Shown here piece after piece: positions 1,100 through 1,205 of a stretch of DNA of 64,000 nt. The number at the start of each line of letters is the position of its first letter. The first letter of the stretch is position 1. The position numbers and the translations under genes are program-made. The stretch lies in assembly GCF_002854065.1 (NCBI RefSeq), contig NZ_CP024147.1; one strand, written 5' to 3'. Under the pieces are notes generated by a model. It did no database searches and was not told the DNA's origin. It saw only the letters and a program-made list of their open reading frames with translations. The stretch comes from Escherichia coli. Its GTDB lineage: Bacteria; Pseudomonadota; Gammaproteobacteria; Enterobacterales; Enterobacteriaceae.

Positions 1100-1205
1100 T
1101 CACAAATTTCGTTTTATTTCCTTTTTCTCCATTGAACTTTCGATTTCTTTTCTATAGATTTTAATCAACGAAAGACATCACCAAGTGAAATGAAACGAAA
1201 GGCAA
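1100..1205. promoter_or_regulatory. agaS promoter region with AgaR-operator-like TTTC-rich repeats
   Basis: aaatttcgttttatttcc (1105-1122), aactttcgatttcttttc (1133-1150) and the reverse complement of gaaatgaaacgaaagg (1187-1202) resemble the AgaR operator consensus (TTTCRTTTYRTTTY type). Confidence 0.4.

Follow-up and report, generated by a model that had tools for sequence, protein, structure and literature searches.

Organization of the aga/gam cluster

The sequence analysed here is a 64-kb stretch of Escherichia coli DNA, referred to below as the window, which opens inside the agaA gene. The coding sequence of agaA extends to a stop codon at position 905 and is interrupted by an in-frame amber stop on the plus strand (TGG to TAG in codon 238, positions 483–485), which was read in the sequence and is also annotated in E. 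coli 100416. An intergenic region of about 350 bp, between 905 and 1256, carries the repeats that are the subject of this study and separates agaA from agaS. The latter gene (1256–2410, plus strand, 384 aa), named agaS in matching genomes, is intact and is the first gene of the operon under the AgaR-type sites; it is followed by kbaY, agaB, agaC, agaD and agaI. Both agaS and kbaY are full length in the window. The agaC gene is split by a complete IS1 of 768 bp (4087–4854, plus strand) with a 9-bp target duplication (CCCTAACTG), so that an N-terminal remnant of 41 aa is left; this is the sole IS1 copy in the 64 kb. The first-pass annotation of this region had listed agaA and agaC as broken, and the amber codon and the insertion are the lesions concerned. 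The insertion is probably polar on agaD and agaI, and hence the control by AgaR is probably limited to agaS-kbaY-agaB.

A query of 451 bp spanning the intergenic region found a match in 5343 of the 5426 complete E. coli genomes, and in each case the match lay between the agaA homolog (annotated as "nagA") and agaS. The closest complete genome, that of E. coli 100416 isolated from stool in the Gambia, is 100% identical except for IS1, which it does not have; it shares the internal stop of agaA and also contains agaR. The presence of the agaA stop in this IS1-less strain suggests that the nonsense mutation is older than the insertion. The AgaC-IS1 junction peptide was found in 76 index blocks of public assemblies in which agaA is mostly intact, indicating that the IS1 insertion is common to a wider lineage.

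In the window, two small ORFs of 150 and 100 aa occupy the stretch between agaI and rsmI (7125–7903), where K-12 carries the yraHIJK fimbrial operon. Matching genomes annotate them as a RelE/ParE-family toxin and an HTH protein.

AgaR-like sites upstream of agaS

The initial claim that at least three copies of the TTTCRTTTY motif lie in both orientations within 1100–1205 was borne out, with exact matches at 1107–1115 on the plus strand and at 1187–1195 and 1192–1200 on the minus strand; a fourth copy is found at 958–966. The 14-mer TTTCRTTTYRTTTY is found without mismatch at two places in the window, 1107–1120 (plus) and 1187–1200 (minus). The 9-mer is not significantly enriched over the window as a whole, where it occurs seven times against 4.19 expected, a count reached in 12 of 100 shuffled sequences.

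The 24-mer consensus of AgaR reportedly described by Ray and Larson in 2004, WRMMTTTCRTTTYRTTTYNYTTKK, matches the window at 1181–1204 (minus) with no mismatches, at 1103–1126 (plus) with one and at 944–967 (plus) with three, whereas 0.10 matches are expected. A full-text literature search for the AgaR consensus strings returned no match. The AgaR site of the kbaZ promoter (PkbaZ) includes CTTTCGTTTCATTT (PMC8667592, supplement), and this string has an exact match at 1188–1201 on the minus strand.

As a test independent of the 24-mer consensus, the whole window was scanned with a weight matrix of 24 columns, trained only on sites of the agaR-kbaZ type of intergenic region from nine other genomes (K-12, one other E. 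coli, Citrobacter, Salmonella diarizonae, Pluralibacter and four other Enterobacteriaceae). The four top matches were 1102–1125 (plus, 24.1 bits), 1182–1205 (minus, 23.9 bits), 943–966 (plus, 18.3 bits) and 1133–1156 (plus, 17.3 bits). All four exceed the maxima of 20 shuffled windows, which ranged from 5.2 to 15.4 bits, and all four fall within 263 bp. The resemblance to the AgaR operator proposed in the first-pass annotation thus holds for the exact PkbaZ string as well as for the matrix; that annotation omitted the matches at 1133–1156 and 943–966. A repeat finder, run separately, reported a family of direct repeats (D1) with members at 947, 1106 and 1137, and an inverted pair (I3) formed by 1107–1120 and 1187–1200, which are 93% complementary.

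The repeats could be explained as chance low-complexity T-rich DNA, UP-element-like or curved, to which no particular protein binds. Ts abound throughout the region, the count of the 9-mer is compatible with chance, and the T-rich matrix also assigns 11.9 bits to the coding stretch 53762–53785, which overlaps the initiation codon and the lysine-rich N-terminal part of what is probably mlaD, a gene on the minus strand. The latter match was rejected as a chance one, as its score lies within the null range and it has three mismatches to the consensus. Such an explanation has to be set against the four matches that surpass every null maximum within so short an interval, and against the comparative data given below. 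A match at 3625–3648, inside agaB, likewise scored within the null range and was rejected. At the RNA level, Rfam yielded only sub-threshold REP-related (naRNA4) and meaningless plant miRNA matches in the region, and therefore no RNA element accounts for the repeats.

Layout of the agaS promoter

Each of the sites consists of three or four directly repeated pentamers, YTTTC/RTTTY, in succession. Three of them, which we call O-up, O-core and O-down, lie 52–154 bp upstream of the agaS ATG (1256), directly upstream of the gene but somewhat further than the distance of about 100 bp initially given. They are arranged around a predicted weak sigma-70 promoter, Ps (1132–1160, plus strand), with the putative –35 element TTGAAC at 1132–1137, a 17-bp spacer and the putative –10 element TAGATT at 1155–1160. 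A promoter and terminator scanner made no calls over 880–1300, and it missed Ps because the hexamers match the consensus in only eight of 12 positions. Our promoter prediction relies on the conservation of ATTGAAC and TATAGATTTT over 19 genera and places the transcription start of agaS near 1167.

O-up (ACAAATTTCGTTTTATTTCCTTTT; 1102–1125, plus strand), the best match to the matrix, is situated just 5' of the predicted –35 element. Most of the 41 species scanned have it between –153 and –157 relative to the agaS ATG. O-core (TGAACTTTCGATTTCTTTTCTATA; 1133–1156, plus strand) is a member of the D1 family 31 bp past O-up; it overlaps the –35 element, extends through the spacer into the first bases of the –10 element, and is kept across genera as CTTTCGATTTCTTTTC. 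O-down (TTGCCTTTCGTTTCATTTCACTTG on the minus strand; 1182–1205) is inverted relative to O-up and would lie in the transcribed leader; it is the most widely kept site, and nearly all genera have it between –73 and –80. Relative to the predicted start, the centers of the three sites are at about –53, –22 and +27, respectively.

Two smaller elements accompany these sites. An additional short CTTTCGTT element (AACGAAAGACA; 1167–1177, minus strand) coincides with the predicted transcription start. It is weak, falling below the matrix threshold, forms a direct repeat (D3) with 1194–1204, and occurs mainly in Escherichia, without conservation beyond this genus and a few others. GATCACA (1098–1104, plus strand) abuts O-up on its 5' side and is present in 15 of the 19 aligned genera, next to a variable left-hand flank. 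It may be a CRP half-site, or else a flank of the operator or part of the AgaR contact; only this right half, and not a full CRP site, could be made out at Ps.

Conservation across species and the link to agaR

A scan with AgaS in one genome per species produced 71 loci, 42 of them with a full-length match. In these 42 loci, TTTCRTTTY occurs at a density of 11.6 per kb within the 300 bp that precede agaS and of 0.09 per kb elsewhere. The matrix gave 163 matches scoring at least 14 bits, and 132 of these fall within 420 bp upstream of agaS. The upstream matches hold near-fixed offsets from the agaS start (about –154, –123 and –74), as they do in the window, and about 40 species from some 15 genera keep these offsets. 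In an alignment of the promoter from 19 genera, the operators and the –35 and –10 elements form conserved blocks and the flanks have diverged. Nearly all remaining matrix matches form one other cluster, directly upstream of agaR wherever agaR lies within the locus. The co-occurrence of the motif with agaR ties it to AgaR without use of the 24-mer consensus.

These data bear directly on the possibility of chance T-rich DNA. The exact positions and sequence of the sites are kept in about 40 species while the flanks have diverged, and the motif recurs only beside agaR. We consider that possibility largely refuted and assign it next to no probability.

In the E. albertii representative the AgaR-like sites 5' of agaS (L084:4700–5000) have decayed and no matrix match of at least 14 bits was found, although the AgaS protein is 95% identical; the regulation of agaS may be decaying or rewired in this species.

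Repression of the agaS promoter by AgaR

Published binding targets of AgaR are the promoters of agaR, kbaZ and agaS (PMC3668189, citing Ray and Larson 2004, Mol Microbiol 51:813). Under induction by N-acetylgalactosamine (GalNAc), expression of a Ps-lacZ fusion rises about 20-fold and the level of agaS mRNA about 500-fold (PMC3668189). When agaR was lost, transcription of the Aga PTS genes increased, as assayed with agaV and agaB (PMC9628945), and a single AgaR site derived from PkbaZ was sufficient to repress a synthetic promoter when placed either at +1 or at –61 (PMC8667592). The control of the E. coli agaS promoter by AgaR is therefore already known, and on the evidence of its sequence the window carries the same operators essentially unchanged.

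Taken together, the sites match a known AgaR site, occupy a promoter controlled by AgaR, are orthologous to those of K-12, and are conserved and co-occur with agaR. We are thus highly confident that the Ps region is the known AgaR operator cluster, in which three strong operators lie on both sides of, and across, a predicted weak sigma-70 promoter repressed by AgaR. The sites, their statistics, their conservation and the link to agaR were established in the present analysis; binding of AgaR and repression of Ps are taken from the literature.

The layout suggests how the repression could work. Without inducer, AgaR would occupy the sites, probably cooperatively and possibly with looping, and would exclude or stall RNA polymerase. 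When bound to O-core it would block the binding of polymerase, at O-down it would block or stall early transcription, and O-up would add affinity and perhaps cooperativity. Growth on GalNAc or galactosamine would relieve the repression.

One may ask whether the sites are bound mainly by some other regulator, such as a DeoR-family paralog, NagC or nucleoid proteins of the SlyA/H-NS type. T-rich tracts are typical of H-NS targets, the conserved GATCACA beside O-up suggests at least one additional factor, possibly CRP, and overproduction of SlyA raises expression of agaS-kbaY-agaBCDI about 2.5-fold (PMC5797941), which indicates that AgaR is not the sole input. However, the motif co-occurs with agaR across genera, both at the divergent promoter of agaR and at agaS, and it is the same as the AgaR site put to functional use in PMC8667592. 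Repression of Ps has been assigned to AgaR (PMC3668189). Further regulators would add to the action of AgaR and not replace it, and we regard a different main regulator as very improbable.

Comparison with E. coli K-12 and other known systems

Ps of K-12 is orthologous DNA with the same gene context, the same O-down sequence and the same distal T-rich run (described below). Over 880–1270 the window and K-12 are identical at 388 of 391 positions. One of the three differences affects O-up, where K-12 has T at 1121 and the window has C, so that the score is 26.6 bits in K-12 and 24.1 bits in the window; this substitution falls on what we take to be a degenerate (N) position of the published AgaR consensus. 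The other two affect O-core, where K-12 has AG at 1142–1143 and the window has GA, with scores of 13.7 and 17.3 bits, respectively. The site (L003:7854–7877 in K-12) reads CTTTCAGTTTC in K-12, which has CAGTTTC, and CTTTCGATTTC in the window and in most genera. Since the window and most genera share the consensus form, it is the K-12 reference strain that carries the derived, lower-scoring variant of O-core. The genes of the cluster differ as well: the window has the amber stop in agaA and IS1 in agaC, whereas K-12 has the agaW'-agaA' deletion.

The divergent control region between agaR and kbaZ (PkbaZ and PagaR) contains the same pentamer-repeat motif as the window (CTTTCGTTTCATTTCGTTTT and similar). 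Like Ps, it has several direct sites and one inverted site downstream, and a CRP-like element just 5' of one operator. Unlike Ps, it serves another promoter with another number and spacing of sites and also autoregulates agaR.

Among the DeoR-family repressors, GlpR and DeoR of E. coli have several operators located upstream of, over and downstream of the promoter, as observed at Ps. The likeness extends to a presumably oligomeric repressor with a sugar-phosphate inducer. The operators of DeoR and GlpR are palindromic, whereas the sites at Ps are runs of direct 5-bp repeats.

The analysis places the three proximal operators precisely with respect to the predicted promoter, in a layout conserved across Enterobacterales. 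Beyond correct annotation, its significance is small.

State of the repressor and the circuit in this lineage

The agaR gene itself lies beyond the window, and its state in the source genome was approached through a strong surrogate. A search with the 41-aa AgaC-IS1 fusion peptide identified a contig (L014, GCA_035821435.1) that is identical to positions 1–4160 of the window (4160/4160), including the agaA stop and the IS1 junction. Its AgaR protein has 269 aa and is identical to that of K-12, and kbaZ and agaVWEF are full length. The call for an intact agaR could thus be answered for this contig, the agaR copy of the source genome lying outside the 64 kb. The earlier expectation that repression is intact despite the lesions in agaA and agaC gains support from the operators, which are nearly identical to those of K-12, and from the repressor identical to K-12 AgaR in L014; we infer that AgaR repression at Ps is probably intact in this lineage.

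The operators might nevertheless be intact relics, if the aga/gam cluster is decaying in this lineage and the circuit has become irrelevant or unresponsive. The cluster has two inactivating lesions, the agaA stop and IS1 in agaC, and operators of this type can decay, as illustrated by E. albertii, where agaS is 95% identical and the sites have degenerated. On the other side, the agaA-agaS control region shows no lineage-specific changes, being 100% identical to that of a strain with intact agaA. The pathway is also not simply dead, as agaS and kbaY and, in L014, kbaZ and agaVWEF are full length, together with agaR. In addition, nagA can cover the loss of agaA for growth on GalNAc, and K-12, despite its larger deletion, still has a regulated Ps (PMC3668189). 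The substitution of nagA for agaA would explain the upkeep of the control region. A relic is in our opinion an improbable description of this circuit, and we favor a working one. A lineage with a nonsense mutation in agaA and IS1 in agaC thus keeps its operators and, in the identical contig, the repressor, and this retention fits continued use of agaS and kbaY in the catabolism of GalNAc and not wholesale decay.

Probable terminator and distal T-rich run

A stem-loop on the plus strand at 923–948 starts 18 nt past the agaA stop codon (905). It has a predicted energy of –10.2 kcal/mol (z = –2.06), and compensatory changes were observed in five of the seven consensus pairs in an alignment of 11 species. 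Within 923–967, this stable, GC-rich stem-loop is followed by a U-rich tract (TTTCTTTTTCTTTCGTTTT) at the end of an operon, and the simplest reading of folding and covariation is that the stem-loop and T-tract probably form an intrinsic terminator for the kbaZ-agaVWEFA operon. A bulge in the hairpin explains why the simple scanner did not report it.

The distal run of T-rich pentamers (AGGCCTTTCTTTTTCTTTCGTTTT; 943–966, plus strand), ranked third by the matrix and with three mismatches to the 24-mer consensus, is the reference copy of the D1 family. It begins inside the 3' arm of the stem-loop and continues along the T-tract, and its 5-bp periodicity (CTTTC-TTTTY-CTTTC-GTTT) is conserved across genera. 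The run might be both the U-tract of the terminator and a fourth AgaR operator, a suggestion that we consider rather unlikely and offer tentatively. If this is true, a loop could form between the run and the sites near the promoter.

Between the terminator and the promoter lies a palindromic element of the REP/BIME type (975–1064), which comprises the inverted repeats I1, I4 and I6 and has sub-threshold matches to naRNA4, a REP-derived RNA. No other block of the region varies among E. coli strains, and other genera do not have the element. Accordingly, the distal match is located at about –257 from agaS in the genera that do not have the REP element and at –313 in Escherichia, in which the insertion has increased the distance of the run upstream of O-up from about 100 to about 160 bp. 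If the distal run is an operator, this shift could change the geometry of the loop or uncouple the distal site.
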